In this document: positions 1 to 45,423 of the stretch, piece by piece
Layout: the number at the start of each line of letters is the position of its first letter
Position numbering within the stretch: the stretch's first letter is position 1
Assembly (NCBI GenBank): GCA_965261085.1
Contig: OZ253442.1
Span: 4,203,821 to 4,267,820 of the forward strand
Reading direction: 5' to 3'
Origin: a bacterium
GTDB lineage: Bacteria > UBA8248
Length of the DNA stretch: 64,000 nt
Program-made: the position numbers and the translations under genes
The notes under the pieces: generated by a model
What the model was told of the DNA's origin: nothing
The model's database searches: none
Seen by the model: only the letters and a program-made list of their open reading frames with translations

Positions 1-791
1 GTCATCAATTCCTGAATCTGGGCCGCTGCCAAGTCTGCTGATTTTTCCTGAAACGCCTCAGGCTCGTTCTCATACGGCGCGAGAGCGTCGACGACACTCC
101 CGGGCACGCTCGCCCCGCATTTTTCCGCAAAACGCTGAACCTGCGCCACATCCCGGATGGGCAGGATGCCCGGCGCAAGGGGTACGCGCACGCCTCTTTT
201 TTTCATCTGCTCCAAAAACCGCTCCCAGACCCCCGCCTCAAAGAAGAACTGGGAAGCCGCGTAATCGGCCCCCTCGTTCACTTTCCGGACGAAGTAATCC
301 ATGTCCTCGTCCTTATCGGGCGTTTCGGGGTGGCCTTCGGGATAACAGGCCACGCCGATGGAGGAGAATCCGCCGAGAGCCTTAAGCCAGCGCACCAGAT
401 CTGCGGCGTAGCGGAATCCGCCGGCCACGGCCTCATCGCGCGTCATTTCTTCGGGGATATCCCCCCTGAGCGCGAGAATATCGCGCATCCCGTTTTCCTG
501 ATAAACCGCCATCAAACGCGAGATTTCGGCCTCGTTCGCACCCACGCAGGTGAGATGCGCCACCACGCGCCCCGGGTAGCGCCTCTCCAGTTCGAGCACG
601 AGTTCGAGCGTACCCTCTTGCGTGGAGCCACCCGCCCCGTACGTCACCGAAGTAAAGGCGACGTCCATCACCTCCTGAATCGCGGCCACCTCGCGCAGCG
701 CGCGCTCCACGGCCTTCCGGCCCTTGGGCGGATAGAGCTCGATGGAAACGCTGACCTCATGAGAGCAGATGCTCTCGATAATCGCCGACAA
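1..791 (-). CDS. metF: 5,10-methylenetetrahydrofolate reductase (3' end runs off the window; absent from the ORF track)
   Basis: Manual translation from TTG 791 (AGGAG RBS upstream): SIELYPPK...FTSVTYGAGGST...VAHLTCVG...ILALRGD, typical MetF motifs. Confidence 0.9.
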   Translation of the reverse strand, partial: MSAIIESICSHEVSVSIELYPPKGRKAVERALREVAAIQEVMDVAFTSVTYGAGGSTQEGTLELVLELERRYPGRVVAHLTCVGANEAEISRLMAVYQENGMRDILALRGDIPEEMTRDEAVAGGFRYAADLVRWLKALGGFSSIGVACYPEGHPETPDKDEDMDYFVRKVNEGADYAASQFFFEAGVWERFLEQMKKRGVRVPLAPGILPIRDVAQVQRFAEKCGASVPGSVVDALAPYENEPEAFQEKSADLAAAQIQELM

Positions 792-844
792 TCCACTACT
801 CCTGCGCGACGCCCTCACCCGGGCGCCGGGAGAATGAGAGACGT

Positions 845-881
845 AAAAAAACGGGCGCGGGGCAAATCCGCCCCGCGCCCG
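845..881 (-). terminator. Intrinsic terminator after the sodA-prx operon
   Basis: CGGGCGCGGGGC/GCCCCGCGCCCG stem with 6-nt loop; the A7 run on + gives a U7 tail on -. Confidence 0.85.
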
Positions 882-910
882 GCAACACGAAATTCAAAAA
901 CGAGACTAGC

Positions 911-1372
911 CTATAGACCCTCGATAGCCGCGAAGAGTTTCTCATCGTCCGGCTTCTCGGGCGGAGCGGCCGTCTCCTCCATGTAGGCGACGTTCCCGTC
1001 TTTGTTGACGAGAACCACCGCGCGGTTGCTGAAGCCCTTGGCATTCAGCAAACCGTAGGCCGCACACGTTTCCTTGCCGAAGAAATCGCTCAGCAGCGGA
1101 AATTCGATGCCGTATTTCTCAGCCCAGGCGGCGTGCGCGAAAGGGCTGTCCACACTGATGCCGATAACCTCGCAGTCGGCGGCGTCGAATTTCGCCTTCT
1201 CCGCCTGATAGGCGGGCAACTGTTCGCTGCACACGGAGGAGAAATCGAACGGGTAGAAGCAAAGAAGAACGTTTTTCTCTCCGCGAAAATCACTCAGCTT
1301 CACCGTATCCCCCTCGGCGAGGGTTCTCGGCAGTTCAAAATCTGGTGCTGCATCACCTACGCTCAAAGCCAT
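911..1372 (-). CDS. Peroxiredoxin (AhpE/BCP-like, AhpC-TSA family)
   Basis: [17 protein letters not shown] peroxidatic motif, GISVDS, PLLSD, RAVV. Confidence 0.9.
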
Positions 1373-1384
1373 GATATCGCCCCC

Positions 1385-1972
<588 letters not shown>

Positions 1973-2223
1973 TTCGTTTTCTCCTTGATGGGAATGGGAT
2001 GTTCCTATTCACATGGTAAAAATAAAACCAATGAAGCCGCGGCCTCGTAAATCCTCCCAAAAACCGCCAAATCAGGTGAGCGGCGAATGACGAGACGCTG
2101 CGGAGAAGTTTTCATTTTTACGCAAACTTGAATCTCTGCTCCTGGTTCACAAGAGGCCGCATTCTACTTTTAGGGATTGGCCCGCGTCAAATCTCATCCT
2201 GAAGGCATCGGCCCGCCTTTTGC

Positions 2224-3123
2224 CTATTCGGGCGCGTCCATTTTCTGGATTTGGTCGAAATCACGGTAGAGAAGCGATAAATCCTCTTCGATCATTCCCC
2301 GCGCGACGGCTTTTTTCAAAAACGAGAGCGTGCCTTCGGCCAACTGGACGTCCGCGCCGCGCTTTTTCCCGATGCCGACGGCGATGCCGACATCCTTTTG
2401 CAGGTTGTAGATGCGCGCCTGCCCGTTCCAAGTGCCCGAGAGGATGTTGTTCGGAAAGCGGTGGCGGCTGGCGTAGCTATAAGCCGTCGATGCGTTGAAG
2501 ATGTCTATCATGTCCTCGACGCGCATTCCGAGGCGCTCGACGAGACGCGCTCCCTCGCAAGTCGCCAGGAACATCGTGTGGAGCACCATGTTGTGGATGA
2601 GCTTCATGGTGTGGCCGGAGCCCTGCGCTCCCAGGTGGAAGGTGTTCTCGACGAAGGGTTTGAGGTATTTCCTCGTGCGCTTGAGAAGCCTCTCATCTCC
2701 GCCGATCATGAGCGTCAGCTTCCCCTCGAGGATGCCGGCCGGCCCGCCGCTCATCCCTGCATCGAGATAGCCCACCCCCCCGCGCTCGGCGCGCTTCGCG
2801 AGACGCTTCGTCTTCGCCGGGTCCGAGGTCGTGAGGTCGTAGACGACGAGCCCTTTTCGCGCGTTTTTGAGCAGGCCGTCTTTCCCTTTGAAGCACGCCG
2901 CTATCTCGTCCGATGAGGGCACGACGAAGAAAACGACCGCGCAGGATTTCGCTATCTCACCGGGCGGTGCGATAGTTACGCCCTTTGTTTTCTCGAACGG
3001 CCTGCGCGCGGCCTCTGAGACGTCCCAGACCATCAGGGGCATCTTCGCCCCGATGAACCTCTGCGCCACGGGATTCCCCATGCGTCCCAAACCGATGACG
3101 CCTACGCTGTTTCGTTTCGCCAC
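2224..3123 (-). CDS. NAD(P)-dependent beta-hydroxyacid dehydrogenase (3-hydroxyisobutyrate DH family)
   Basis: GLGRMG Rossmann motif, DAGMSGG, catalytic K in MKLIHN. Confidence 0.85.
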   Translation of the reverse strand: MAKRNSVGVIGLGRMGNPVAQRFIGAKMPLMVWDVSEAARRPFEKTKGVTIAPPGEIAKSCAVVFFVVPSSDEIAACFKGKDGLLKNARKGLVVYDLTTSDPAKTKRLAKRAERGGVGYLDAGMSGGPAGILEGKLTLMIGGDERLLKRTRKYLKPFVENTFHLGAQGSGHTMKLIHNMVLHTMFLATCEGARLVERLGMRVEDMIDIFNASTAYSYASRHRFPNNILSGTWNGQARIYNLQKDVGIAVGIGKKRGADVQLAEGTLSFLKKAVARGMIEEDLSLLYRDFDQIQKMDAPE

Positions 3124-3160
3124 GTAACACCTCGGAGGAATATCCGGACAATGGATTCTT

Positions 3161-3237
3161 TGGAGCCGACGACCGGAGTTGAACCGGTGACCTGCTGATT
3201 ACGAATCAGCTGCTCTACCTGTCTGAGCTACGTCGGC
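3161..3237 (-). tRNA. tRNA-Thr(CGT)
   Basis: Reverse complement GCCGACGTAGCTCAG...CTGATTCGTAATCAG...GGTTCAACTCC...GTCGGCTCCA; cloverleaf with encoded CCA. Confidence 0.95.
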
Positions 3238-3421
3238 TGAAAGAGCATGGAACCCTGGTGAGGCTCGCGTTCCCCATGAGGGTGGTATTGAACACGCCGC
3301 TCCCCCCTTCGTCAAGCCGTGAGGCGGCGAGACGGCGCGAAATTTGCGATTTCCCGCCACTTGTGGTTTCATTCGGAGGCTTGACTTGCGAGACGACGCA
3401 TCGTAAACATCTTTTCTCTTT

Positions 3422-3497
<76 letters not shown>

Positions 3498-3505
3498 CAA
3501 ATCAC

Positions 3506-3525
3506 CCCGAACCCCGTTCGGGTTT
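3506..3525 (+). terminator. Possible terminator hairpin after tRNA-Lys
   Basis: CCCGAAC-CCC-GTTCGGG followed by a short TTT. Confidence 0.5.
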
Positions 3526-3606
3526 CATGCAATTTCTCACAGGAACGGCCCCTCCCCTCCATCTTTTCGGTGGGGACGGCATCCTCCCCGGAAGGCGGGC
3601 CGGTTC

Positions 3607-3735
3607 GTGAGCCGTGGCGCCACCGAGGATGAGATATTCGAGGCCGTGCAATGCCTGATCTTTCCCGCAGGCGGCCCCTCGCTGATGATGGGTATCAAGT
3701 GCCTGCGCGCCGTCCTGGAGGAGCGCAAGACTTAG
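3607..3735 (+). pseudogene. 3' remnant of a carboxymuconolactone decarboxylase (CMD)-family gene
   Basis: Frame reads GATEDEIFEAVQCLIFPAGGPSLMMGIKCLRAVLEERKT*; no recognisable 5' half. Confidence 0.6.
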
Positions 3736-3769
3736 GACTCATTTTTTTCATATCCCTAGGGGACACCGC

Positions 3770-4507
3770 ATGGACAGAAGCATCTGGGCGACCTGGTACG
3801 ACCTGCCGAAAGAAGATGAAGAAGAGTACAACGACTGGCTCCACCACACGCACATAAAAGACGCGCTCAAACGCCCCGGCTACATGTGGGCGGCCCACTA
3901 TGAACTCGTGGACAGGGAATCGCCCAAATCAAAGAAAAAAGACCACTTGGCCTACACGGACGACCCCTCGATCCCCAGCGGCACGGAGTTTCTGCTCCTG
4001 TTCGGGGCGGCGAGCGCGGAGGTTTTCTTAAGCCCCAACCCCGCCCAACTCGCGGAGACGTACTCTGATGAGACGAAGGCGATGACCGCCAAGAGAATCG
4101 GCGAGCGCACCGGCATATTCACCGAAGTCGACAGGGTGAACGGCCCGGACGCAGCCACCCGCGCGGTGGGCGGCGTGCCCGCGCCGATAGTCCAGATGGG
4201 CACGTTCAACTGCTTCACGCCCGAGGACGATTTTGATCTCAGTTCCTGGTACGCGCAGGACCGCCTGCCCGCGATGAAGTACATGCGCGGCTGCGTGGGC
4301 ACGCGCAAGCTGGTCTCCGTGGCGGGATGGGCGAAGCACTCCATCTTTTATGAATTCGCCTCGCTCGAGAAAGTCCTCGCGCACTTCCCGCGCGCGGACA
4401 AGCTCTTCCCCGGCGAGAACGACTGGTCGTATCACGTATGCCAGCGCCTGCTCCATGCGCCCGGCTCGCCCACTCGCGGCAAGCGCATCTGGCCGCCGGT
4501 GGAATGA
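3770..4507 (+). CDS. Hypothetical protein with two putative dimeric alpha-beta barrel (EthD/DUF4286-like) repeats
   Basis: EEEYNDWLHHTHI...PGY and FDLSSWYAQDRLP...GC patterns; GGGG RBS. Confidence 0.6.
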   Translation: MDRSIWATWYDLPKEDEEEYNDWLHHTHIKDALKRPGYMWAAHYELVDRESPKSKKKDHLAYTDDPSIPSGTEFLLLFGAASAEVFLSPNPAQLAETYSDETKAMTAKRIGERTGIFTEVDRVNGPDAATRAVGGVPAPIVQMGTFNCFTPEDDFDLSSWYAQDRLPAMKYMRGCVGTRKLVSVAGWAKHSIFYEFASLEKVLAHFPRADKLFPGENDWSYHVCQRLLHAPGSPTRGKRIWPPVE

Positions 4508-4523
4508 GTAAGGGGGCGTAAGA

Positions 4524-5204
4524 ATGAGTTATATGAAACCCATCCCCGTCGAGGAAGCGGAAGGCGAAGCCACGAAACTATTCGCAGGCGTGACGAAGAT
4601 GCTCGGCCGCGTGGCGAATTCCTTCGCCGTCATGGCCTATCAGCCCCACGTCGCCAAGGTCATACTGCCGCTCACCGTCACGCTCATGCGCGAGGGGCTG
4701 GGCACGGTGCTTCCCACCAAAATCAAGGAAATCTCAGTCATCAAGACGAGCCACCTGAACGGGTGTGAATACTGACTCGGGCACAACACGGCGCTCGGTC
4801 GAGACGCCGGGGTCACCGAAAAGCAAGTGCGCGAGATCTGCTCGGACGCCTATATGGACTCCCCTACGATGAGCCCAAGAGAGAAAGCCGCCGTCCTGTG
4901 GGCGGAGCACGTGACGCGCAACACCGCCAAGACGCGCGACGACGTGTTCCAAGAGGTGAGGCGTCATTATGATGATCGCGAATTCGTCGAGCTCACCATG
5001 GTCATCACCTATTTCAACATGAGAAACCGCTTTCAGGACGCCCTGCGCATTCCGCTGGATGAACCTAAAACGATATCGGGCATCACCCTCGGGCGCAGGC
5101 AGGACCCCGAAAACCTCAAAACCTATCTCGAAGAGGTGGCGGCGGAGTGGCCCGAGAGTTTTCCGGGGCCGGATGAAGACGATAAAGGGGAGCGTCACGC
5201 ATGA
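4524..5204 (+). CDS. AhpD/CMD-family protein with in-frame TGA (4773-4775), probable selenoprotein, 226 aa
   Basis: ORFs 4524..4775 and 4827..5204 share one frame; reads TSHLNGCEY-U-LGHN...MSPREKAAVLWAEHVT...FNMRNRF. Confidence 0.85.
4789..4809 (+). promoter_or_regulatory. Putative bacterial SECIS element
   Basis: CGGCG-CTC-[GGTC loop]-GAG-A-CGCCG hairpin starting 14 nt after the TGA; the loop starts with GG. Confidence 0.7.
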
Positions 5205-5644
5205 GCGAGAAGCCCGATTTCGTCTGGGAGAATTTACAAGTCGGCATGACCATCGGTGAGCGCAGCCTCACGGTGACGCAAGAGATGGTGGATGCGCACT
5301 GCGACGCCGTGGGCGCAAAGCGGGAATGGTATGCGGGCGAATCGCCCGCAGGCGGGTCCATCGCGCCGCCGATGATATTCATCAACGACCTGCTCGCCAT
5401 TTATGATGAGAACTACAAGCGCTTCGGCACCATCCACGCGAAGCTCGGCTACCGCTTTCACCGGCCCGTGCGAGTCGGTGAGACGGTGCGCCAGAAAGTC
5501 ATTGTCAAGGACTTATACGTGAAGCGCGAGAAGGGCTGGATAGTGAGCGAACTCAGCGTTGCGAACGAGGCGGGCGAGTTGCTCTTGACCTCCTCGCACA
5601 CGTCGGTCTTAAGCCTCACGAGAAAGCACCAGGATAATGACTGA
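5201..5644 (+). CDS. MaoC/hotdog-fold protein, probably the non-catalytic subunit
   Basis: IAPPM, IHAKLGYRFHRPVRVGE; lacks DxxxxH; ATGA overlap with upstream gene. Confidence 0.75.
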   Translation: MSEKPDFVWENLQVGMTIGERSLTVTQEMVDAHCDAVGAKREWYAGESPAGGSIAPPMIFINDLLAIYDENYKRFGTIHAKLGYRFHRPVRVGETVRQKVIVKDLYVKREKGWIVSELSVANEAGELLLTSSHTSVLSLTRKHQDND

Positions 5645-6068
5645 CTCACTACTTAAAAACATGGAAATCGGCGACGCTCTGCCCGAGCGGACACACAAAG
5701 TGGACTGGGAGGATATTCTCAAATTCAACCGCTACGTCACCGGCGGCGTGGATACCAAGAACATTCACACCGACGATGAGGTGGCCCGAAAGGCGGGCCT
5801 GCCCCGGGCGGTGGCGACGGGCCGCCACCCGGTGTCCTTCATCACCGAACTCATGGTCGATCATCTGGGCATGGGCTTCATCACGGGCGGAGAGATTGAT
5901 GTCTCCTTCGTGAAGCCTATTTTCCCGGGCGACGTTTTAAGCCTTTCGGCGACGCTCAAGGAGAAATCTTCGGACGATGGCGCGAAGAACTATCTGTTCG
6001 ACGTTTCGCTCACGAACCAGGACGGCGCCGCCGTCACGCTCGGCACCGCCGGCGGACGCATCAACTAG
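5637..6068 (+). CDS. MaoC-family dehydratase, catalytic type
   Basis: DTKNIH (D-x4-H) motif, FVKPIFPGD. Confidence 0.85.
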   Translation: MTDSLLKNMEIGDALPERTHKVDWEDILKFNRYVTGGVDTKNIHTDDEVARKAGLPRAVATGRHPVSFITELMVDHLGMGFITGGEIDVSFVKPIFPGDVLSLSATLKEKSSDDGAKNYLFDVSLTNQDGAAVTLGTAGGRIN

Positions 6069-6079
6069 CCTCAGGCCCC

Positions 6080-8185
6080 ATGAACGCACGAAAATCCCTA
6101 AAAAGCCTCTTTCACCCGAAATCCTTCGCCGTAGTGGGCGCAGCCTCGAACCTGAACCGCTTAGGCGGTATCCCCCTGCGTCTCACGATGAAATACGGCT
6201 TTCCCGGCCCCATCTACCCCATCAACCCGAGGCGTGAGGAGATAGCGGGGCTTAAGTGCTATCCCGACATCGCCTCTCTGCCGGAAGCGCCCGAATTCGC
6301 GCTCATCTGCACGCCGAGAGAAGACGTGCTCCCCGCCCTCGCACAATGCGCGGAACGCGGAGTAAAGGCCGCCGCCGTCATCACCTCCGGCTTCGCGGAA
6401 ACGGGCGCAGAGGGAGTCGCGCTTCAAGAGAAGATTCTCGCACTTCGCGACGCATCGGGGATGCGGGTGCTCGGCCCCAACTGCATGGGCGTGGTGCACG
6501 TGCGCTCACGCCTCATGGCCACGTTTACGATATCCATCAGGGATGACGACCCGCTCATTCCAGGGGCCGTGGCCATCGTCACCCAGAGCGGGGCCATGGG
6601 GGCCTGCATGCTCACGGGCTTTCAGGAGAGTGGTTCAGGCATCAGCAGCCTCGTGAGCCTCGGCAACGAGGTGGACGTTGATTTCGCGGAATGCGTCGAA
6701 TACTTTCTGGACGACCCGCACACGCGCGTCATTTGCGGGTATCTGGAATCCGTGCGCAATGGCAAGCGTTTGAAACGCGCCGCCCGGCGCGCCTTGGAGC
6801 TTGGGAAACCCATCGTCCTGCTCAAGGGCGGTAAGACCGAAGAGGGAGCCCGCGCCGCGCGCAGCCACACCGCCGCCATCACGACCTCAAGCGATGTTTT
6901 TGACGCCTTCGCCGAACAATACGGCGTTCAGGTGCTGGGCTCCATGGATGAGTTCATCGAAATAGCGGATTTCCTCGCGCGCACAAAGCCGATTCAAGGA
7001 AACGGGGTGGGGATTTTAAGTTTCTCGGGCGGGCTGGGCGCGCTGGCCGCAGACTTAAGCACGGACGCAGGTCTCAGGCTTCCCGTCCTCGGCGAGAAAA
7101 CGCAAGAAAAGCTCGCTGCCGTGCTGCCCGACTACGCGCCCAAGGACAATCCGGTGGACCTCGTATCCCTAATGGTCAGCCAACCCGAGAGCCAGCCGCT
7201 CAAAACCGCAGGGGAAGCGGTGGCATCGGATGAGAGCGTAGACGCCCTGCTCTTCCTCATGGGCATTTATCACCACGTGGGCGAGCAGATAGCCGAAGAA
7301 GTGAAGGCGCTGTTCAAATCCTCGGAAATCCCCATCGCCTTCGCCTGGCTCACGGGGCCGCGAGAGTACATACATGCGCTCAGGAAAGCCGACGTACCCG
7401 TTTTTGGCGATTATTCACGCGCGATTCGCGGCCTGGAATCCCTCTTATCCCTCGAACACGCGCGCGAGACCGCCTCGTCTCAGCACTTCTCGAAAAACCA
7501 CACAAGGAAGGAGGCGGCCAGGCGAAGCATAAAGCGGGGCCGCGCATCGGCCGATGGTTTTCTGCCGCCTGAAACCTGCGCCGAAATTTTGGACCTCTAC
7601 GGTATCCCGAGACCACGGGAAATTCTGGTCGATACGGCGGATGAAGCACGCAAGACGTGGGAGGAGTATCAAACCCCCGTTGCGCTCAAACTGGTATCGG
7701 AGAGCCTCTCGCACAAGACCGAGGCGGGCGGCGTGATCCTGTATCTCGATACACCCGAGGAGGTGCTGGCCGGAGCCGAAAAATTGCTTACTCTCACGGA
7801 TGACGCGCGCCTTCTGGTGCAGGAGATGGTCGGAGGCGGCATAGAGCTTCTGGTCGGCATATCGCGGGATGAGACGTTCGGGCCGTGCGTCACGGCGGGG
7901 CTGGGCGGGGTGTATGTGGAGGCGCTGGGCGACGTGGCCCGCCTGCTGCCGCCTTTTGACGCCGCACAGGCCGAAAGGGCGCTATCGGGCCTTCGCTCGC
8001 GCGTCATATTCGATGGCTTCCGGGGCGGTCCCAAAGTTCAAATCTCGCGCATATCCGATATAATGGTCAAAATATCGAGGCTGGCGCTGGAGTTGAGACA
8101 CGAGATCGCCGAGATGGACCTGAACCCGCTCATCGCCACGGCTAAGGGCTGCATCGCCGTGGACGTTCGGATAAAAAGGACCTGA
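6080..8185 (+). CDS. ADP-forming acyl-CoA synthetase (fused alpha-beta, acetate-CoA ligase family)
   Basis: PKSFAVVGAAS, GPNCMG, QSGA, SLGNE, SHTA phospho-His, NPVD, HKTEAGGV ATP-grasp, DLNP. Confidence 0.9.
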   Translation: MNARKSLKSLFHPKSFAVVGAASNLNRLGGIPLRLTMKYGFPGPIYPINPRREEIAGLKCYPDIASLPEAPEFALICTPREDVLPALAQCAERGVKAAAVITSGFAETGAEGVALQEKILALRDASGMRVLGPNCMGVVHVRSRLMATFTISIRDDDPLIPGAVAIVTQSGAMGACMLTGFQESGSGISSLVSLGNEVDVDFAECVEYFLDDPHTRVICGYLESVRNGKRLKRAARRALELGKPIVLLKGGKTEEGARAARSHTAAITTSSDVFDAFAEQYGVQVLGSMDEFIEIADFLARTKPIQGNGVGILSFSGGLGALAADLSTDAGLRLPVLGEKTQEKLAAVLPDYAPKDNPVDLVSLMVSQPESQPLKTAGEAVASDESVDALLFLMGIYHHVGEQIAEEVKALFKSSEIPIAFAWLTGPREYIHALRKADVPVFGDYSRAIRGLESLLSLEHARETASSQHFSKNHTRKEAARRSIKRGRASADGFLPPETCAEILDLYGIPRPREILVDTADEARKTWEEYQTPVALKLVSESLSHKTEAGGVILYLDTPEEVLAGAEKLLTLTDDARLLVQEMVGGGIELLVGISRDETFGPCVTAGLGGVYVEALGDVARLLPPFDAAQAERALSGLRSRVIFDGFRGGPKVQISRISDIMVKISRLALELRHEIAEMDLNPLIATAKGCIAVDVRIKRT

Positions 8186-8192
8186 CGAGAGG

Positions 8193-8633
8193 ATGCGCAT
8201 GAGCAAGAGAATCACGCCCGAAATCCGCGCCCTGGTGGGGCGAAAGCACGGCCCCTACAGAGTAAAAGTCGAGCAGGGCGCGATCGAAAAATTCGCAGAC
8301 GCCATCGGCGACCCGAACCCGGCCTACCGGGGAGTCGACGCCATCGCGCCCCCCACCTTCCCGACCACCTTCAGGACAAAGGACGCCTTTCCCGATCTGC
8401 CGCCTGATTTCGGTGACGTGGGCCTCCACGCTTCGCAAGCCTATGAGGTGGAGCGACCCATCCGTGCGGGCGATGAGCTGGATGTTTCCTTCACCATCTT
8501 GGGCATCACCGAAAAATCGGGCCGCACGGGCGATCTGGTCTTCGTAGAGCGAGAATACGAATTTCTGGACGCGCGCGACGGCTCCCGCGTGGGCGGGGGC
8601 AAGTGGGTATCGCTCAGGCGATTCAGGAACTAA
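8193..8633 (+). CDS. MaoC N-terminal/HadA-like hotdog protein
   Basis: FADAIGDPNPAY, APPTF, LHASQAY. Confidence 0.85.
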   Translation: MRMSKRITPEIRALVGRKHGPYRVKVEQGAIEKFADAIGDPNPAYRGVDAIAPPTFPTTFRTKDAFPDLPPDFGDVGLHASQAYEVERPIRAGDELDVSFTILGITEKSGRTGDLVFVEREYEFLDARDGSRVGGGKWVSLRRFRN

Positions 8634-8643
8634 AGGAGAGGCG

Positions 8644-9045
8644 ATGCGCTACAGACATGGCGATAAACTCCCCGAACTCGTAAAGGAACCCGTATCGCGG
8701 ACACAGCTCGTGAAATACGCAGGATCCAGCGGGGATTACAACCCGATTCACTATGACGACGAGGCGGCGCGGGCGGGCGGTCTCGAGGGCGTCATCGCCC
8801 ACGGGATGCTATCGATGGGCTTTTTGGGGCATTTCATTGAGAACACCTTCGGCGCGGGAAGCTGCAAAAGGCTCGAAGTCCGCTTTCAGGGCATGGTGAA
8901 GCTCGGCGAGGTCATCACCTGCCGGGGCGTCGTCACCGACATCACGCAAGAGAAGAACCGATCATACGCCACCTGCGAGATCGAGGCGGTAGACTCAAGC
9001 GGCCGCGTCGTCACCAGGGGCTGCGCCCAGGCCTGGCTGGACTGA
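8644..9045 (+). CDS. MaoC/HadB-like dehydratase
   Basis: YAGSSGDYNPIH, IAHGM. Confidence 0.88.
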   Translation: MRYRHGDKLPELVKEPVSRTQLVKYAGSSGDYNPIHYDDEAARAGGLEGVIAHGMLSMGFLGHFIENTFGAGSCKRLEVRFQGMVKLGEVITCRGVVTDITQEKNRSYATCEIEAVDSSGRVVTRGCAQAWLD

Positions 9046-9073
9046 ATCCATAGAATAGAAAGAGAGGAATTCC

Positions 9074-9817
9074 ATGAGACTGAAAAACAAGAACGCCATC
9101 GTCACCGGCGCCGCCCAGGGCATCGGCCGCTCGGTTTGTGTGCGCTTCGCAGAAGAAGGGGCGAAGGTGCTCGTCGTCGACATGAACGAGGAGGGCGGCG
9201 AGGAGACGGCGCGCCTGATTCGAGAGGCGGGCGGCGAGGCCATCTCCCACAAGGCCGACGTGAGCAAACTCCAGGAAGTAGAGGGCGCGCTCGACGTTTC
9301 CGAAGCCGCGCACGGCCCCATCAACGTCATGGTGAACAACGCAGGCATCGTGCGCGCGGCCATGCTCCACAAGATGACCGAAGAGCAATGGGACTCCGTG
9401 ATCGCCGTTCACTTGAAGGGCACCTGGACGGGAATTCACGCGGCGGCCAAGCGCATGATCCCCCGAAAAGAGGGCCGCATCATCAACGTCACCTCCGGCG
9501 CGGGGCTTCGCGGCACCATCGGCCAGATCAACTATTCCTCCGCCAAGATGGGCATCGTCGGCGCGACGCAAAGCGCCGCGCGCGAACTGGGACGCCACAA
9601 CATCACCGTGAACTGCGTCTCGCCCGCGGCCATCACCCCGATGACGGAGACGATTCGCACCGATGAGCGCTTTGAATCCAAATACCTGGAGCGCATCTGC
9701 CTGGGCAGGTGGGGAGAACCCGAGGAGATGGCGGCTGGCTTCGTGTTCCTCGCATCGGACGAGGCGAGCTACGTGACGGGCATCGTGCTCAGAATCGACG
9801 GCGGGCTGGGGATGTAG
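9074..9817 (+). CDS. SDR family oxidoreductase (FabG-like 3-oxoacyl reductase)
   Basis: TGAAQGIG, NNAG, YSSAK. Confidence 0.9.
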   Translation: MRLKNKNAIVTGAAQGIGRSVCVRFAEEGAKVLVVDMNEEGGEETARLIREAGGEAISHKADVSKLQEVEGALDVSEAAHGPINVMVNNAGIVRAAMLHKMTEEQWDSVIAVHLKGTWTGIHAAAKRMIPRKEGRIINVTSGAGLRGTIGQINYSSAKMGIVGATQSAARELGRHNITVNCVSPAAITPMTETIRTDERFESKYLERICLGRWGEPEEMAAGFVFLASDEASYVTGIVLRIDGGLGM

Positions 9818-9863
9818 GCTCTGGATTCCGGAATTCGCCGGGATGACAAGCAAAGGGAATATC

Positions 9864-10089
9864 ACTCCCCCCTTGAGGGGGAGTCGCAGAAGCCGAGCCC
9901 CTTTGGGCGAAGGCTGATGCGGTGGGGGGCAAGGTTCTAAAATAAAAGCTCCCCCCACCGGCACGACTGCGGGCTTCGCCCTTGCCTTGCCGACTCCCCC
10001 TCAAGGGGGGAGTAATTTCGCATATCTCGTTTTATCGTCTCGACGACATTCCCTCCCTCATCGGTCGGGAATGACCCTCAAGGGGGGAG
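9864..10089. repeat. Palindromic REP/MITE-like element with 23-bp terminal inverted repeats plus an extra right arm
   Basis: ACTCCCCCCTTGAGGGGGAGTCG (9864-9886) is the exact reverse complement of 9991-10013; related copy at 61313-61486. Confidence 0.8.
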
Positions 10090-10232
10090 CAAAGGCGAGC
10101 GGACACACAAGTCCTCCCTTACGAGACAACCACCACCCCCAAAATACTCACCCCCATCTGGCGTCGCCACCACGGGACTGATAGAATCGCCCCGGATGCG
10201 ACCCCGAAAACAACGAAACGGAGGAACCGCCC

Positions 10233-11261
10233 ATGAAGGCCATGATCCTCAAACAATTCGGCCAGCCCCTCGCCTACGAGGAAGCGCCCGAACCCAAGAT
10301 CGGCCCACACCAGGTTCTGGTGGAATCGAAGGCGAACGGCCTGTGCGCCACGGACCTCAAAATCGTGGACGGAAACGTCAAGTCGGCCCCCACGCCCTTG
10401 ATGCTCGGCCATGAGAATTCGGGAATAGTGCTCGAAGTGGGCTCGGAGGTCGATTCCTTCTCTCCGGGCGATCGCGTGGTCGTCGTGAGCAAGCAGACCT
10501 GCGGGCGCTGCCGCATGTGCCGCCTGGGCCATGAGGAGATGTGCCTGAACTCGCCGGGACGCTTAGGCATCGAGATAGACGGCGGCTTCGGCCAACTCGT
10601 CGCGGCCTCTGAGCGAAACCTCGTCAAAATCGGGGACAACGTATCGCTCGCAGCGGCCTCCCTCATCGGCGGGACGCTCGGCTCCCCGCTCCACGCCATC
10701 CGCATGGCGCGGCCCGAACTAGGGGAGTGCGCCGTCATCTTCGGGGTCGGGGGACTGGGACTGCACGCTCTTCAACTCCTCCGCCACCTGGGCGCGAACA
10801 TCATCGCCGTGGACGTGAAGGACGAAAAACTCGCCAAGGCGCGCGAACTCGGCGCGTTCGAGACCGTGAACGCGATGGAGACCGACCCGGTCAAGGCCGT
10901 GATGGACATCACGAACGGATTCGGGGCGGACATCGCGCTCGAGATCGTCGGCGGTGCCGCCGTGCCGCCCGTGCTCCAGCAGTGTCTCGACCTGCTCCGG
11001 CCCGGCGGACGCCTCATCGTCCTGGGCTACGTCTTCGGCCAGAAAATGGAAATCGAACCCGCGCAGCTCATTACCAAGTGGATACAGATCATCGCGTCGC
11101 ACAACCACACGGTGCGCGACGTGACCGATGCCGCGAGCCTGGTGAACGATGGCCGCGTGCGCGCCGTCATCACCGAGGAGGCGCCTATGCCCGACGCCAA
11201 TGACGCCCTGGCCGCCCTGCGCGCAGGCGACCCGGTGGGCCGCATCGTGCTCACCTGGTGA
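10233..11261 (+). CDS. Zinc-dependent alcohol dehydrogenase (MDR family)
   Basis: GLCATD, GHE, CGRCRMC...C structural Zn site, GVGGLG. Confidence 0.9.
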   Translation: MKAMILKQFGQPLAYEEAPEPKIGPHQVLVESKANGLCATDLKIVDGNVKSAPTPLMLGHENSGIVLEVGSEVDSFSPGDRVVVVSKQTCGRCRMCRLGHEEMCLNSPGRLGIEIDGGFGQLVAASERNLVKIGDNVSLAAASLIGGTLGSPLHAIRMARPELGECAVIFGVGGLGLHALQLLRHLGANIIAVDVKDEKLAKARELGAFETVNAMETDPVKAVMDITNGFGADIALEIVGGAAVPPVLQQCLDLLRPGGRLIVLGYVFGQKMEIEPAQLITKWIQIIASHNHTVRDVTDAASLVNDGRVRAVITEEAPMPDANDALAALRAGDPVGRIVLTW

Positions 11262-11366
11262 GTTGGGGCGCGTTTCAGGAATCGCTATCACGGGGCAACA
11301 ACCAACCAGATGAGACCATAGGACCAAGACCGACAAAATCTTTACAACGCATCCGCAGGAGGCAAC

Positions 11367-12758
11367 ATGGCGTATCGAATCGAAACGGACAGTATGGGCG
11401 AGATCGAGGTCCCCGAGGACAAATACTACGGCGCGCAGACCGCGCGCTCGCTCGTTCACTTCAAGATAGGCGGCGACCGCTTCCCTCGTGAGATCATCCG
11501 CGCGCTTGGCATCTTGAAGAAAGCCGCGGCCATGACGAACGAGGAACTGGGAATCTTAAGTTCCGATAAGGCCGCGCTCATCATCCAGGCGGCGGATGAG
11601 GTGATCGCGGGCGATCTGGACGAGCATTTCCCGCTCGTCGTCTGGCAGACCGGCAGCGGAACGCAGACGAACATGAACGCGAATGAGGTCATCGCGAACC
11701 GCGCCATCGAACTCACAGGCGGCGAGATGGGTTCCAAAGACCCGATCCATCCCAACGACGACGTGAACAAGGCGCAGTCCTCGAACGATACTTTCCCCAC
11801 GGCGATGCACATCGCAGCGGGGGAGCAGATGACGAAGAAACTCATCCCCGCCGTGGAAGCGCTTAAAGATACGCTCGCGGCGAAGGCGAAGGATTTCGAG
11901 ACGATAATCAAGATCGGCCGCACGCACCTGATGGACGCCGTTCCCTTGACGCTGGGCCAGGAATTCTCGGGCTACGCTCAACAACTCGAAAACGGCATTG
12001 CGCGCGTCAAGATGTCGCTGGACGGCATCTATGAGCTGGCGCTTGGCGGTACGGCGGTGGGCACGGGCTTGAACACGCATCCCGACTTCGCGGACAAGGC
12101 CGCCGCCAGAATCGCCGATATGACGGGGCTTCCCTTCCGCTCGGCGCCCAACAAGTTCGAGGCCCTCGCCGCGCACGATGCGGTCGTCTTCGCGAGCGGG
12201 GCGGTAAAGACCCTGGCGGCGTCCTTGATGAAGATAGCCAACGATATCCGTATGCTGGCCTCGGGCCCCCGGTGCGGCGTGGGCGAGCTCCTCATCCCCG
12301 AGAACGAGCCAGGAAGCTCCATCATGCCCGGCAAGGTGAACCCCACCCAGAGCGAGGCGATGACGATGGTGTGCGCCCAGGTGATGGGCAACGACGTGGC
12401 CGTGAACATAGGGGGCGCTACGGGGCATTTCGAATTAAACGTCTTCAAGCCCGTGATGATCTTCAACCTGCTGAACTCGGTGCGCCTGCTGGCCGATGCG
12501 TGCGTATCGTTCAACGAGCATTGCGCGGTGGGCATCGAACCCAACCGGCCGGCGATAGACGCATACCTTCAGAACTCACTCATGCTGGTAACGGCGCTAA
12601 ACCCCGTCATCGGGTATGACAACGCGGCCAAGGTGGCGAAAAAGGCCTTCTCAGATGGCGGCTCCCTGCGCGACGCGGCTCTCGCGCTGGACCTGCTCAC
12701 GGGCGAGGAATTCGATGCGGCGGTAAAGCCCGAGAACATGATCGGGCCCAAGGGGTGA
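11367..12758 (+). CDS. fumC: Class II fumarate hydratase
   Basis: [39 protein letters not shown]. Confidence 0.97.
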
Positions 12759-12768
12759 AGGTGTGCTT

Positions 12769-13545
12769 TTATAAAGAGAGACAATCCTCGATAAAGCGCG
12801 ATATCCTTTCTCGATTGGCGGTGAGACTCGAAAACTGATTTTCACAGACATCGCTGAAACGCGCCAACACCTTGCGATTGATCGATTCCTGATCTTCGAA
12901 GATCGCAAGAGAACGAAAAGACATGTCCCATTTCTCGAACTGAAGTAGTGTGATCGTAGCGTCGCGGACCTTGTCGTCATTTGACAACGCATGAATAAAG
13001 AGCGGGCGAGGCATGCCGTTAACACGGCAGTCTACAGAATATCTGCCTTCCGGATCGCGCTCTGGATCAAACCAATCGAAATTTCTCCGTTCTTCGAGCA
13101 TTGATACGGCGAGAAAATTTCGGAAATCATCGTTGAAAGTGGAACGGACTCTCTCTCGTGACAAGTAGGACACGTCGGCGATTTTGAGAATACCCTGCAC
13201 AAAAGAGAAAAGCGCGTCCCCGTATTGTTCGTCCGGTACGGGGAGGATGAGTTCTCCATCACGATCTTCGATCCGAAAAGCAGAGAGTGTGTTGGTGATG
13301 ATTTTCTGGCGTGTCCCACGTTGAAGATCGGTTTCGTCAATGTCGTAGGTGAGGTGCATGAAAGTATGCGCCTCGTCCGACAACACCCATGCCAGCCCTT
13401 CCCGTTTCAAAACGACCGCAAGATGATCTCCATCCTCGAATAGAAATGGTGTAAACACACGAAATCGCTCAATGCCTTCTGCAATGAGCCGGATCTCTTG
13501 AGACACTTTTTCATGGAAGTCGCGTTCAATCGTAGCGATAGACAT
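12769..13545 (-). CDS. DUF1828/DUF1829-like protein with a possible PD-(D/E)xK-like C-terminal domain
   Basis: TPF..DGD, LSDE..T N-terminal pattern and YSVDC C-terminal pattern; recognised by eye. Confidence 0.65.
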   Translation of the reverse strand: MSIATIERDFHEKVSQEIRLIAEGIERFRVFTPFLFEDGDHLAVVLKREGLAWVLSDEAHTFMHLTYDIDETDLQRGTRQKIITNTLSAFRIEDRDGELILPVPDEQYGDALFSFVQGILKIADVSYLSRERVRSTFNDDFRNFLAVSMLEERRNFDWFDPERDPEGRYSVDCRVNGMPRPLFIHALSNDDKVRDATITLLQFEKWDMSFRSLAIFEDQESINRKVLARFSDVCENQFSSLTANRERISRFIEDCLSL

Positions 13546-13547
13546 AT

Positions 13548-14030
13548 TTAAACCTCCCGAAAAAGACCGAGTTGATCGTCAGTGGGAGCGCCGAGATTCA
13601 TGTCCTCAATAAAACAGCGAAGCGCACTACTATAATCCCCGTATTTGTTAGTTATTTCCGCATAAGCGTCCTCACGGGTTCCCATTTCCTGATATCGCTC
13701 CGTGGCCATATGAATATGGAATCCGTAAAAGCTGTTGCTTTCTATATGATTCTTATGTTCGTGGCTCTTCCCGTTATATCGTTGCAGGCGAAAGAGTTGA
13801 CTTGATTTCGGCACGCGCACTGCTAGGATAATCGAGAAATCGAGAATATTCACCATACTCCGCCGGAGAATGACACGAAACTCGTTGCCCACATCGCTTG
13901 TGAGATCGAGTTCCCGCTCTTCATGACCCCGTTTTGGACGAAGACGCATCTGGTCACGCCATTTTGGTGGAAGGGGTTTCCGTTCGGCAATAAGCTCCTC
14001 GATTTCGCTATCGGAATACGTTCTCGACAT
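13548..14030 (-). CDS. DUF6978-like hypothetical protein
   Basis: RYNGKSHEHKN...FHIH motif; its stop is 2 nt before the DUF1828-like start; TATAAT on - at 14126-14131. Confidence 0.55.
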   Translation of the reverse strand: MSRTYSDSEIEELIAERKPLPPKWRDQMRLRPKRGHEERELDLTSDVGNEFRVILRRSMVNILDFSIILAVRVPKSSQLFRLQRYNGKSHEHKNHIESNSFYGFHIHMATERYQEMGTREDAYAEITNKYGDYSSALRCFIEDMNLGAPTDDQLGLFREV

Positions 14031-14184
14031 GTGAAATTCCCATCCAGATCAGCCTGCCTGTCATATCCATCGCGTTTCGTCCTAAGGATTTTTCGATAGT
14101 CTGTCTACCAAAATACCCCGTTGCCATTATACTGTCATCCGGTAGCGCAATTCACGAACCGTGGGCGAACCCCTTCACCCCAAT

Positions 14185-14244
14185 ACCCTCAAACGCCGCC
14201 GGTATCTGCTGGACGTCCTGGATGATATCAGGCGGCGGGTCTTC
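14185..14244 (-). pseudogene. Inverted remnant of an LLM oxidoreductase 3' end
   Basis: Reads EDPPPDIIQDVQQIPAAFEG versus KDLPPDLIQDIQTIPAAFTG at 17291-17350; 16-nt exact match. Confidence 0.75.
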
Positions 14245-14287
14245 CCCTACGAGAAGCGGTTCACGATTGGCGGGTCTGGACGTTCGT

Positions 14288-15421
14288 TTACGAAACCAGG
14301 CTTAAGAGCCGCTCCCAGAGGTATTCCGCGTCCTCATCGGTGAGCGGGTCGGGCGAGATGTAGATTTCCGATTCGCCCGATACGCCTATCTGTATCCGCA
14401 CCTCGCACTCCCAGAGCGCATCGGCGACCTCATCGCGCGATTTCCCGAGTGATTTCTCGTCGATTTCGATCACGACTTCCGGCAAATCCTGCCCCAGGGT
14501 GTTGGGGCGTCTGAGGCGGGGCGAGAGTCCTTTCATCCCGGTTGTGCGTTCCATGAAGAACTCGCACCACCGCTCATTGTGGGCGTACTGGGCGGTCTCG
14601 CCGGCGTCCAGATAATGCGCAAGCGCCGCGAGCAGGCCCACGATGACGTCGCGTCCCGCCTTCATGGGCCGGCCGATGGCGTACCTGGGGCTTCCCATCA
14701 TGGCGCAGGCTTCGATGATCTCCTTTTTGCCCAGGATGATGCCTGTGTTCTGCGGCCCGCCGATGCTTTTTCCCCCGCTGAAGATGGCGGCGTCGGCCCC
14801 CAACTCCTTCGTGTAGCGCCAGAGATTGGAGGATGGGGGAAGCTGCGCCGCGGCATCCACGACCACGGGCACGTTTTTGCCGTGCGAAATCTCGATGATG
14901 GTCTCGAGCTTGAGGATGTTCCGGCCCGCATACTGACCCGGGAAATAGAAGACGGCCGCCGTTTTCTCGCCGATGGCGTCTTCGAGTTCCCAGGGGTGGG
15001 TCTGGCGGTGAGAGCCTATCTCCACGAGCCGCGCCCCCGCCTGGCGGATGTTGATGTCGTAATGGTTTCTCTGAAAGCGGTGGATGACGATCTCGTTCTT
15101 CAAGCCGTCCGTAAACGGGAGCTTGTCCATGAGGGCCGGATTTCCGCCCGTGATGCAGGCCGCCGCACTCAGCACGAGGCCGGCGGCGGAGCCGCTCGTG
15201 ACGTAGGCCGCCTCGTTTTGCGTCATCTGTGCGATGCGCGCGCCCGCTTTTGCGTGCAGTTCGGTCATTTCCACCTGGGCGGCGTTCGCCTCCTGCATGG
15301 CGGCCCATACCTCGGGCCTCAGCTTCGCGCCGCCCATGCGGGTCTGGCGGGTGCGCGCGCTGATGACGCGGCGGACTCCGAGGTTTTTGAGGAATTTGGG
15401 GTTTTGAGGGGATTCGTTAAT
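14288..15421 (-). CDS. SelA-like (DgaE-type) PLP-dependent enzyme; probable ATT start
   Basis: LGVRRVIS, VVVDAAAQ, FSGGKSIGGPQNTG (PLP lysine), IGRPMK; AAGGAG 7 nt upstream of ATT. Confidence 0.8.
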   Translation of the reverse strand: MNESPQNPKFLKNLGVRRVISARTRQTRMGGAKLRPEVWAAMQEANAAQVEMTELHAKAGARIAQMTQNEAAYVTSGSAAGLVLSAAACITGGNPALMDKLPFTDGLKNEIVIHRFQRNHYDINIRQAGARLVEIGSHRQTHPWELEDAIGEKTAAVFYFPGQYAGRNILKLETIIEISHGKNVPVVVDAAAQLPPSSNLWRYTKELGADAAIFSGGKSIGGPQNTGIILGKKEIIEACAMMGSPRYAIGRPMKAGRDVIVGLLAALAHYLDAGETAQYAHNERWCEFFMERTTGMKGLSPRLRRPNTLGQDLPEVVIEIDEKSLGKSRDEVADALWECEVRIQIGVSGESEIYISPDPLTDEDAEYLWERLLSLVS

Positions 15422-15432
15422 CGCCTTACTCC

Positions 15433-16182
15433 TTAGCCAGGGGTGGAGAATCCGAGTTCGCTCACGTTTTTGAGGATGGTCCATGAGGCGTCTTCCGTAT
15501 TTCCGCATAGGGAAAGGGTGTGAAAGCCCTCCTCCTTGCGGTAGAAGCGCCTCTCGATATCGAGTTTGAAAGCCTGTGTCGTCTCACGAGGCATGATCTC
15601 CAAATCAGTGGATTCCGGCGGCGCGCCATCCGTGCCGACGCCAAACAGGAGCGGCGAGGCGGCTCCCTCGTGCGCCACTTCTCCCTCGATTTCGAGATGG
15701 GCCGCCTCCTCTCCCCATACGAGAAAAGAAACGCTCATACCGGGCGATACCTCGCGCCACCCGCCCGGTGAAATCGCCGCATCCACGCGCAGGCGTTGCC
15801 TCCACTTGCGGGACTTTCGGTTGTGATGGCTCAGGATGAATTTTCTGTGCTCGGGCCTGTCCGCCCAGTGGTAGTGCCCGGGCCTGCTCTCATAGGGCCT
15901 TCCCATGCCGACGAGCAGGGCTGCCGGATCGCCGCGCATCACCTCTTCTCCGTCTATGGCTTCATGGTCCGTCGTCGAGGCGATGAGCTTCACGCGCTCT
16001 CGACGCTCATCCCACGTCGCGTAGACGTACTGCACCGTGTCGATTGGGGGCCGCGAGGTCACGTTGGGCGGCGGTTCCTGCAAGGTGCGCGGCCCCCCGC
16101 CGACGCGGATTTGCTCGCCTGCGTGGCGCACGAGTTCCAGTTGATGAAAGCCCCGGTATTCCAGACGGCATGGTTGGGACAT
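15433..16182 (-). CDS. Hypothetical protein
   Basis: 249-aa ORF with AGGAGG RBS; its stop overlaps the RBS of the next gene. Confidence 0.6.
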   Translation of the reverse strand: MSQPCRLEYRGFHQLELVRHAGEQIRVGGGPRTLQEPPPNVTSRPPIDTVQYVYATWDERRERVKLIASTTDHEAIDGEEVMRGDPAALLVGMGRPYESRPGHYHWADRPEHRKFILSHHNRKSRKWRQRLRVDAAISPGGWREVSPGMSVSFLVWGEEAAHLEIEGEVAHEGAASPLLFGVGTDGAPPESTDLEIMPRETTQAFKLDIERRFYRKEEGFHTLSLCGNTEDASWTILKNVSELGFSTPG

Positions 16183-45024: not shown

Positions 45025-45033
45025 GAAGAAGCT

Positions 45034-45417: not shown

Positions 45418-45423
45418 CCCCTC

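Follow-up and report, generated by a model that had tools for sequence, protein, structure and literature searches.

The DNA analyzed here, hereafter the window, is a stretch of 64,000 nt (positions 4203821 to 4267820) from a 4.27-Mb single-contig genome (G000:C1). Over positions 3770 to 9817, it carries eight tightly packed genes on the plus strand, encoding, in order, a barrel protein of an unnamed family, an AhpD-like protein with a selenocysteine (Sec) codon, a first pair of hotdog-fold proteins (1A and 1B), a fused ADP-forming acyl-coenzyme A (acyl-CoA) synthetase (hereafter the ligase), a second hotdog pair (2A and 2B), and a FabG-like short-chain dehydrogenase/reductase (SDR). According to the open reading frame (ORF) list and the sequence, the spacings between these genes are, in order, 16, −4, −8, 11, 7, 10, and 28 nt. 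A 415-nt spacer with an inverted repeat follows the SDR gene and precedes the genes for a Zn-dependent alcohol dehydrogenase (Zn-ADH) and a class II fumarase (FumC) (Table 1). This agrees with the first-pass annotation of the same DNA, which had described eight genes with overlaps or gaps under 30 nt, followed by a repeat and a Zn-ADH, without naming the fumarase. Its remark that the cluster lacks a thiolase and an acyl-CoA dehydrogenase also holds among the 16 ORFs scanned with Pfam and NCBIfam over positions 1 to 16000.

With a probability of about 70%, we read this locus as two co-oriented units lying side by side, a barrel/Sec-AhpD pair and a CoA-dependent acid cluster, which are probably co-transcribed in this genome.

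Table 1. Features of the locus, in positions of the window. CMD, carboxymuconolactone decarboxylase; SECIS, selenocysteine insertion sequence; REP, repetitive extragenic palindromic; MITE, miniature inverted-repeat transposable element.
Feature	Position	Strand	Basis
tRNA-Thr (CGT)	3161..3237	-	ARAGORN; Rfam tRNA 69.7 bits
tRNA-Lys (TTT), directly 5' of the barrel/Sec-AhpD pair	3422..3497	+	ARAGORN; Rfam tRNA 74 bits
Relic of a CMD-fold gene, C-terminal end, ~40 codons, without start or complete ORF	3607..3735	+	Translation; weak BLASTP match
Barrel protein, 245 aa, tandem ferredoxin-like (Dabb)	3770..4507	+	Structure model; no Pfam model
AhpD-like/CMD-fold selenoprotein, 226 aa, motif C-E-Y-U	4524..5204	+	CMD 40.4 bits
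UGA as selenocysteine codon, residue 84	4773..4775	+	Orthologs, paralogs, SelB, tRNA-Sec
SECIS-type hairpin, GGUC apical loop at 4797-4800	4789..4809	+	Fold; paralog comparison
Hotdog 1A, predicted noncatalytic partner	5201..5644	+	FAS1_DH_region 33.2 bits
Hotdog 1B, predicted catalytic MaoC-type member	5637..6068	+	MaoC_dehydratas 49.3 bits
Fused ADP-forming acyl-CoA synthetase (ACD superfamily), 701 aa	6080..8185	+	Pfam, NCBIfam
Hotdog 2A, predicted noncatalytic partner	8193..8633	+	FAS1_DH_region 67.7 bits
Hotdog 2B, predicted catalytic MaoC-type member	8644..9045	+	MaoC 83.9 bits
FabG-like SDR	9074..9817	+	adh_short; FabG model
REP/MITE-like palindromic repeat	9861..10092	.	Repeat search
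Zn-dependent medium-chain alcohol dehydrogenase	10233..11261	+	ADH_N + ADH_zinc_N
Class II fumarate hydratase	11367..12758	+	TIGR00979 793.7 bits, above cutoff

The selenoprotein and its barrel partner

The AhpD-like gene encodes a genuine CxxU selenoprotein of a family known since 2005, as indicated by the presence of SelB and tRNA-Sec in the genome, a hairpin past the UGA, and homologs with CxxC. Reading the in-frame TGA as Sec places the motif C-E-Y-U at residues 81 to 84 of the product. The host SelB scores 384 bits, over its cutoff, and the tRNA-Sec scores 75.9 bits, over the gathering score. The SECIS-type hairpin begins 14 nt past the UGA; taken alone, its folding energy is unremarkable (z = −1.07). 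A GGTC loop after the TGA is common to 9 of the 12 Sec-containing AhpD-like paralogs of this genome, with stem arms that differ in sequence. An Rfam scan of positions 1 to 16000 (E up to 1) found neither a SECIS nor any other cis-element at the UGA, and only two tRNAs passed. Full-length homologs carry CxxC (C-x-Y-C), or a W where the TGA was called Trp, and many database entries consist of the post-UGA fragment only. The TGA is kept in all 20 orthologs examined, and an in-frame TGA was found in 147 of 150 listed AhpD-like matches across 61 related genomes. The Sec assignment made in the first-pass annotation is thereby confirmed by the decoding machinery, the hairpin, the CxxC homologs, and the retained TGA.

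The genome holds 13 AhpD-like genes, 12 with TGA at the CxxU position and one with Cys. Other TGA-containing copies lie, for example, at 44789 to 45448, 788077 to 788562, 2816485 to 2817036, 3470694 to 3471212, and 3984875 to 3985450 of the chromosome, and gene callers would break each of the 12 in two. In the G001 ortholog (locus L047), another TGA lies in frame about 90 codons past the Sec codon; it may specify a further Sec, stop translation early, or be a sign of decay. Within the window, 9 kb from the selenoprotein gene, a SelA-related pyridoxal phosphate-dependent enzyme of the DgaE family, not SelA itself, is encoded at 14288 to 15508 on the minus strand (TIGR01437, 206 bits, below cutoff).

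The AhpD/CMD-fold domain is recognized by PF02627 (40.4 bits; cutoff, 23) and by the AhpD core model TIGR00778 (30.2 bits; cutoff, 27.8). The protein stays below the named AhpD models TIGR01926 (63.5 bits; cutoff, 81.8), NF053654 (75.4 bits; cutoff, 310), and NF041238 (30 bits; cutoff, 175), so it is a member of the broad AhpD-like kind that fits no named equivalog. Two AhpD-like CxxU families ("AhpD-like 1," COG2128/TIGR01926, and "AhpD-like 2," PF02627) were predicted by Zhang and Gladyshev from Sargasso Sea and Global Ocean Sampling (GOS) data, and the AhpD passages of PMC2398784 and of a 2026 review (PMC13188914) place them among the most abundant marine selenoproteins; the GOS table lists 299 CxxU genes of "AhpD-like 1" (PMC2398784). 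The protein in the window shares with these the CMD/AhpD fold, Sec as the second residue of the CxxU pair, Cys homologs, a post-UGA hairpin, and an uncultured marine host. It differs from them in scoring below the cutoffs of TIGR01926 and the other AhpD (seleno)protein models, and in being one of 12 Sec paralogs in one genome and paired with a barrel protein. The AhpD passages of PMC2398784 and PMC13188914, which do not amount to a full search, contain no mention of such a pairing. Similarly, no title on a barrel/AhpD module was among the listed matches of a literature query on tripartite tricarboxylate transporters (TTT), carboxymuconolactone decarboxylase, and alkylhydroperoxidase.

In Pfam, the barrel protein has only a subthreshold match to DUF4286 (18.4 bits; cutoff, 25.8). 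Its family numbers at least 409 homologs; among the 120 listed, there is no precomputed Pfam domain and no name more specific than "hypothetical." Nitrospinota, Chloroflexi, Dehalococcoidia, Rhodospirillales, and Deltaproteobacteria are among the source labels. A confident structure model (pLDDT, 92.6; pTM, 0.90) predicts an alpha+beta protein with two ferredoxin-like halves. The best Foldseek match is the anthrone-oxidase-like structure 5f9p (TM, 0.61), followed by the monooxygenase PenE (9kdp; 0.57) and a marine metagenome protein (2pgc; 0.56); a bacterial chalcone isomerase (4c9s) and coproheme decarboxylase/chlorite dismutase were also matched. Among the neighbors of a 70%-identical homolog in the Atlas, the labels NIPSNAP, EthD, and DUF4286 appear, reflecting likeness at the fold level only. 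The alignment contains 31 invariant positions, among them His25, Arg113, Trp160-Tyr161, Arg165, His190, Tyr194-Glu195, and His229. Together, the fold matches and the invariant His, Arg, Trp, and Tyr-Glu residues suggest an enzyme rather than a scaffold. The modeled protein thus resembles tandem-Dabb proteins (5f9p, PenE, 4c9s, and EthD/NIPSNAP/DUF4286 members) in its alpha+beta barrel with two beta-alpha-beta-beta-alpha-beta halves. It differs from them in having an invariant residue set of its own, 7 to 13% identity, TM values of 0.43 to 0.61, and no Pfam match above threshold.

Five barrel copies are present in this genome, three of which abut an AhpD-like Sec gene (in the window, at 1023616 to 1025024 on the minus strand, and at 1236139 to 1237563). 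Around the four copies outside the window lie TctA/TctB (two loci), glyoxalases, a formylglycine-generating enzyme-sulfatase-type gene, and ATP-binding cassette transporters, with no CoA ligase or hotdog genes. Most of the 12 Sec-containing AhpD-like genes have no barrel neighbor. The barrel occurs in 35 of the 36 other genomes of the family and in none of 24 relatives outside it. A contig scan with the single barrel query returned 18 loci, all from the same genus (84 to 97% identity), and a metagenome scan with a profile returned at least 533, of which 80 were kept. Many of these contigs are short, with 900 nt on both sides of the barrel at 38 of the 80 loci, and the neighbors were searched by tblastn with one AhpD query, which misses distant AhpD-like genes. 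An AhpD-like gene lies within 220 nt of the barrel at 15 of the 80 loci, with TGA at the Sec position in seven and Cys in eight. A hotdog or ligase match was found at a single locus, 94% identical and from the same genus, where the whole arrangement of the window is repeated; the other 79 have none. A Pfam scan of the flanks covered 123 ORFs at 27 loci with at least 1.5 kb on either side, leaving out L187, L219, and L248 (two of which are near duplicates of scanned loci) and some short ORFs. TctA, TctB, or TctC was present at 16 of these 27 loci, along with three more CMD-fold neighbors and recurrent HIBADH-like, MDR, cupin, and luciferase-like genes. The steadier partner of the Sec-AhpD protein is therefore the barrel, not the acyl-CoA genes.

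Tandem arrays of two or three barrel paralogs were also seen, both in metagenome loci (L172, L173, and L174) and in relatives (L162 to L164, from G035, G031, and G028). In L172 to L174, a cupin gene and divergent TctB/TctA genes stand before the array, and a nitronate-monooxygenase-like gene follows it.

The acyl-CoA genes and the ADH-fumarase pair

In each hotdog pair, the catalytic Asp-x4-His motif is found only in the second member, as D-T-K-N-I-H in 1B, which is atypical, and as D-Y-N-P-I-H in 2B. Hotdog 1A lacks both the Asp and the His, and 2A reads D-P-N-P-A-Y. The nearest likeness of 1B and 2B is HadB (29 and 68 bits); the HadB model scores 35.4 and 77.8 bits on the hotdogs (cutoff, 203), and the HadA model 20.7 and 23.5 bits (cutoff, 180). 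The first-pass annotation had noted one D-x4-H member per pair, which is correct, and had likened the pairs to HadAB-type hydratases. Family matches and motifs support this likeness to HadAB and hydratase-2, with one putatively catalytic member each. As in mycobacterial HadAB and the hydratase-2 part of multifunctional enzyme 2 (MFE-2), adjacent hotdogs comprise a first one without catalytic residues and a second one with Asp/His in a MaoC-type motif. Unlike HadAB, the hotdogs score far under the HadA and HadB cutoffs, form two pairs flanking a ligase (with the unusual motif in pair 1), and likely use CoA esters instead of acyl carrier protein esters.

The ligase joins three domains in one chain, PF13380 (CoA_binding, 87 bits), PF13607 (Succ_CoA_lig, 159 bits), and PF13549 (ATP-grasp_5, 194 bits). 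Its best solved relatives are the 4-hydroxybutyrate-CoA ligase 8wzu (299 bits, aligned over residues 10 to 698), the 3-hydroxypropionate-CoA ligase 9y43, and the dimethylsulfoniopropionate (DMSP) lyase DddX (7cm9, 246 bits). The phosphohistidine is kept, with the His of "...arsHtaa..." aligning with that of 8wzu, 9y43, and 2csu and with "...nahsga..." of DddX, in which His292 is described in this role (PMC8163506). The ligase thus shares with the Nitrosopumilus enzymes (8wzu and 9y43) and DddX the fused domain order, a full-length alignment, and the phosphohistidine position; it differs in scoring at most 299 bits against any of them and below every equivalog cutoff.

The SDR scores 272 bits on the FabG model NF004198 (cutoff, 296) and 204 bits on an acetoacetyl-CoA reductase model. 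In MFE-2, the hydratase-2 part and an SDR-type dehydrogenase share the (3R)-hydroxyacyl intermediate. Judged from sequence, the acyl-CoA unit reads as a partial (R)-specific beta-oxidation-type module, resembling a split MFE-2 with a ligase of its own. The proposal in the first-pass annotation that ligase, hydratases, and SDR form a CoA-dependent module for an acid is supported by these family assignments. On plasmids, ligase homologs (~36% identity) are members of beta-oxidation-like clusters that also encode MaoC, SDR, acyl-CoA dehydrogenase, thiolase, and tripartite ATP-independent periplasmic (TRAP) or TTT transporters. A search of one literature library found no paper joining ADP-forming acyl-CoA synthetase, MaoC, hydratase, and gene cluster.

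The repeat behind the SDR gene consists of 26-nt inverted arms (9861 to 9886 and 9991 to 10016) and a third copy at 10075 to 10092. Its 18-nt core has 85 exact copies in the genome (40 and 45 on the two strands), and the repeat contig reaches a depth of tens of thousands in one DNA run. The same element is present again in the window at 61314 to 61485. The Zn-ADH (PF08240 and PF00107) has Cys38, His60-Glu61, and four Cys at 90, 93, 96, and 104, which we take to be the catalytic Cys/His/Glu and four-Cys structural zinc ligands. Its best solved relatives are alcohol dehydrogenases (~170 bits), and an acryloyl-CoA reductase model gives it 175 bits. Wherever a relative has both genes, the fumarase stands behind the Zn-ADH, also where the ligase block is absent, and the two are therefore best viewed as a neighboring pair outside the operon.

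Conservation of the gene order

Three markers were followed through 60 relatives, with ORFs picked by a longest-ORF heuristic; synteny inside one genus is non-independent evidence. Hotdog 1A is single-copy in this genome; of the 36 other genomes of the family, 32 have it, and outside the family it was found in one genome only (~30% identity). Around the best AhpD matches, the full order, from the barrel through Sec-AhpD, 1A, 1B, ligase, 2A, 2B, SDR, and ADH to FumC, occurs at nine loci of the genus, one of them cut by a contig end. In five genomes, the cluster from hotdog 1A to FumC lacks a barrel or AhpD match of at least 45 bits within ~20 kb; G007 and G009 belong to the same genus and G026, G032, and G036 to another. 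G007 retains only a 48-aa barrel remnant and has a DNA-methylase/TdeIII restriction pair 5' of hotdog 1A (L124, 7461 to 9448). In four other genera, the 1A/1B pair was seen alone. At two such loci, L129 (10960 to 17892, G030) and L130 (8007 to 12701, G027), a giant hybrid histidine kinase of 2310 or 1564 aa, with five to eight GAF domains, PAS, HisKA/HATPase, and a receiver, lies between 1A/1B and ADH-FumC, where the genus has the ligase block.

In the window, the stop codon of the AhpD-like gene overlaps the start codon of hotdog 1A as ATGA (5201 to 5204). Across 20 genomes of the genus, this junction reads ATGA in seven and TGATG in one, spans 41 to 299 nt in four and 322 to 403 nt in four, and holds ~1.87 kb in the remaining four (G006, G008, G013, and G015). 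The content of the long insert was read in G006 (L049, 10547 to 12293), where it encodes a DNA methylase and an EcoO109I-type endonuclease on the same strand; given their equal length, the other three inserts are presumably restriction-modification genes as well. Hotdog 1A has its own Shine-Dalgarno sequence, AAAGGGGAG, at 5184 to 5192, 8 nt before the ATG. In the other genus (g5), the region between a HIBADH-like gene and hotdog 1A holds an epimerase, a two-domain CMD protein, a gamma-glutamyltranspeptidase, and an MDR gene. The restriction-modification inserts and the different gene content in g5 mark the junction region as a variable spot, or insertion hot spot, and are compatible with the barrel/Sec-AhpD pair having entered there in the ancestor of the genus.

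Two further observations touch this region. The two-domain CMD gene upstream of the hotdog cluster is complete in g5 (L135, 6327 to 7193), and the CMD-fold relic of the window shows a weak match to its product (31% over 39 aa; E value, 2e-6 in pairwise BLASTP). A HIBADH-like gene lies just upstream of the locus in the window (2224 to 3123, minus strand).

On the plus strand of positions 3770 to 9817, no terminator-like site was found save one within the ligase gene, and the counts of promoter-like sites (1 versus 2.0 expected) and terminator-like sites (14 versus 9.5) are not above those of shuffled sequences. In the sponge metatranscriptome runs X8 and X9, contigs were confined to the repeat, SDR-like, and fumarase-like stretches, and X1 yielded short low-depth contigs. 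None of the RNA-library contigs crosses the junction at 5201, and they are thus silent on co-transcription. One RNA contig of depth 4 (4389 to 4820) covers the barrel/AhpD junction and the UGA and lacks one base at 4717, possibly owing to strain variation or an assembly error.

Competing explanations and the two-unit reading

The first-pass annotation had proposed a single selenium-linked acyl-CoA pathway of eight genes, in which the selenoprotein acts on a CoA-bound substrate and UGA termination at low selenium shuts down downstream translation through the ATGA overlap. The tight packing and the overlap itself, which is present in this genome, agree with such a model, as do the gene order kept in 20 genomes of the genus and the catabolic, not antioxidant, neighbors of the Sec protein elsewhere. 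However, the full gene set is kept as a whole in a single genus only. That the acyl-CoA pathway requires the Sec protein is unsupported because the cluster stands alone in five genomes and barrel/AhpD pairs recur in other phyla without CoA genes; such pairs were found twice more in this genome and at 14 metagenome loci. A conserved selenium switch is likewise unsupported, since the junction varies, with ATGA in only 7 of 20 genomes and ~1.87 kb inserted in four, and since hotdog 1A has a Shine-Dalgarno sequence of its own at the usual spacing. The single-pathway model was mostly not borne out and appears quite unlikely to us; a selenium switch through the overlap in this strain alone is possible.

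The same annotation had assigned the Sec protein to substrate chemistry, such as reductive C-S or C-X cleavage, and not to general antioxidant work. Of this, substrate-linked redox chemistry is plausible because the neighbors of the Sec protein are catabolic or transport genes and not classical antioxidant genes; the specific cleavage reaction found no support. The opposing view is that the barrel and Sec-AhpD are general oxidative-stress proteins that reduce hydroperoxides or disulfides without a dedicated substrate, sitting here incidentally after AhpD-like selenoproteins multiplied in the lineage. AhpD-like proteins are indeed classed with peroxidase-related enzymes (TIGR01926), the family is among the commonest marine selenoproteins by the GOS count given above (PMC2398784), and most of the 12 Sec genes of this genome have no barrel beside them. 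Yet the repeated pairing with one unnamed family across lineages, whether with Sec or Cys, points to a dedicated partner, Tct genes are enriched around the barrel, and no AhpC, catalase, or similar gene was found beside the pairs examined. General stress protection is therefore an unlikely explanation in our assessment.

A further alternative concerns the acyl-CoA unit, which might serve C3 acids derived from DMSP or acrylate: the ligase would make 3-hydroxypropionyl-CoA or cleave DMSP, a hotdog pair would yield acryloyl-CoA, and the Zn-ADH would form propionyl-CoA. The ligase relatives named above and the score of the Zn-ADH on the acryloyl-CoA reductase model are in line with this, and the relatives of the genome point to sponge-type marine samples. 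DMSP is common in such settings. All scores are nevertheless far under the curated cutoffs, the Zn-ADH has the complete ligand set of its family and is closest to alcohol dehydrogenases, the repeat parts it from the cluster, it stays with the fumarase where the ligase is absent, and no role is left for the second hotdog pair or the SDR. DMSP lyase was also considered for the ligase itself and set aside. In the part of PMC8163506 that describes DddX, Trp391 and Phe435 form a sulfonium cage and Glu432 is the base; unlike DddX, the ligase has Val at the Trp391 position, as in plain ligases, and the alignment ends there, leaving the Glu432/Phe435 region unaligned. This mismatch still leaves room for DMSP-lyase activity, because a distant DddX-like enzyme (~23% identity to DddX) is described as active without the cage and base residues (PMC13543886). 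On balance, we regard the DMSP/acrylate route as very unlikely.

Several observations weigh against the two-unit reading as well. The hotdogs and the ligase score far under the curated cutoffs of every named NCBIfam model. With the query used, 65 of the 80 barrel loci have no adjacent AhpD-like gene, so the pairing is frequent, not universal. The order barrel, Sec-AhpD, hotdog 1A is kept in 20 of 22 genomes of the genus searched, on the same strand even past the restriction-modification insert, which may point to a true functional link in this lineage and not just to common descent. Co-regulation of the genes at 3770 to 9817 is likely, since they are packed tightly enough for one operon. One RNA library gave contigs over 4389 to 4820 and small parts of other genes, at a depth of 2 to 4 at which DNA carry-over is possible, a weak sign of expression. 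Finally, neither the barrel family nor this AhpD-like subfamily has a known activity, so the redox step proposed below is an inference.

In the two-unit reading that we favor, unit 1 (3770 to 5204) comprises the barrel and the CxxU selenoprotein, which would be decoded through the SECIS hairpin. As the barrel/AhpD pairing recurs with Sec or Cys, usually beside Tct genes, the two proteins may act jointly in a thiol/selenol redox step on an imported organic acid or in its breakdown, the barrel binding or converting the substrate and the AhpD-like protein reducing a peroxide, disulfide, or similar group. Unit 2 (5201 to 9817) would be a CoA-dependent module conserved across the family. Its fused ligase is predicted to convert an acid to its acyl-CoA with ATP and CoA; the two hotdog pairs would act as MaoC-type hydratases, heterodimers of a catalytic and a structural hotdog, that interconvert 2-enoyl-CoA and (3R)-hydroxyacyl-CoA; and the FabG-like SDR would interconvert (3R)-hydroxyacyl-CoA and 3-oxoacyl-CoA, the chemistry of a split multifunctional enzyme 2. 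The Zn-ADH and fumarase past the repeat form a separate conserved pair. Unit 1 was probably placed before unit 2, next to tRNA-Lys, in the ancestor of one genus and later lost or separated in several genomes.

A bolder extension, which we consider doubtful, is that the barrel and its CMD-fold neighbor (CxxC or CxxU) make up a widespread two-component enzyme, as yet undescribed, acting on Tct-imported organic acids, combining cofactor-free oxygenation or isomerization with selenol/thiol reduction of the product. This enzyme would have been multiplied and switched to Sec in sponge-associated Nitrospinota and wired, in one genus, to a CoA-activating (R)-hydratase pathway, making the acid route selenium-dependent there.

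These results correct the earlier picture of the locus, in that the selenoprotein is no fixed part of an acyl-CoA pathway and the stop/start overlap no conserved selenium switch. They also document a genome with 12 AhpD-like Sec genes and provide a lead on two large uncharacterized groups, the AhpD-like marine selenoproteins, which have no known reaction, and a barrel family of several hundred members without a Pfam model. The recurrent barrel/AhpD adjacency, together with the carboxylate (TTT) transporter genes, offers a concrete pair for expression and assay.

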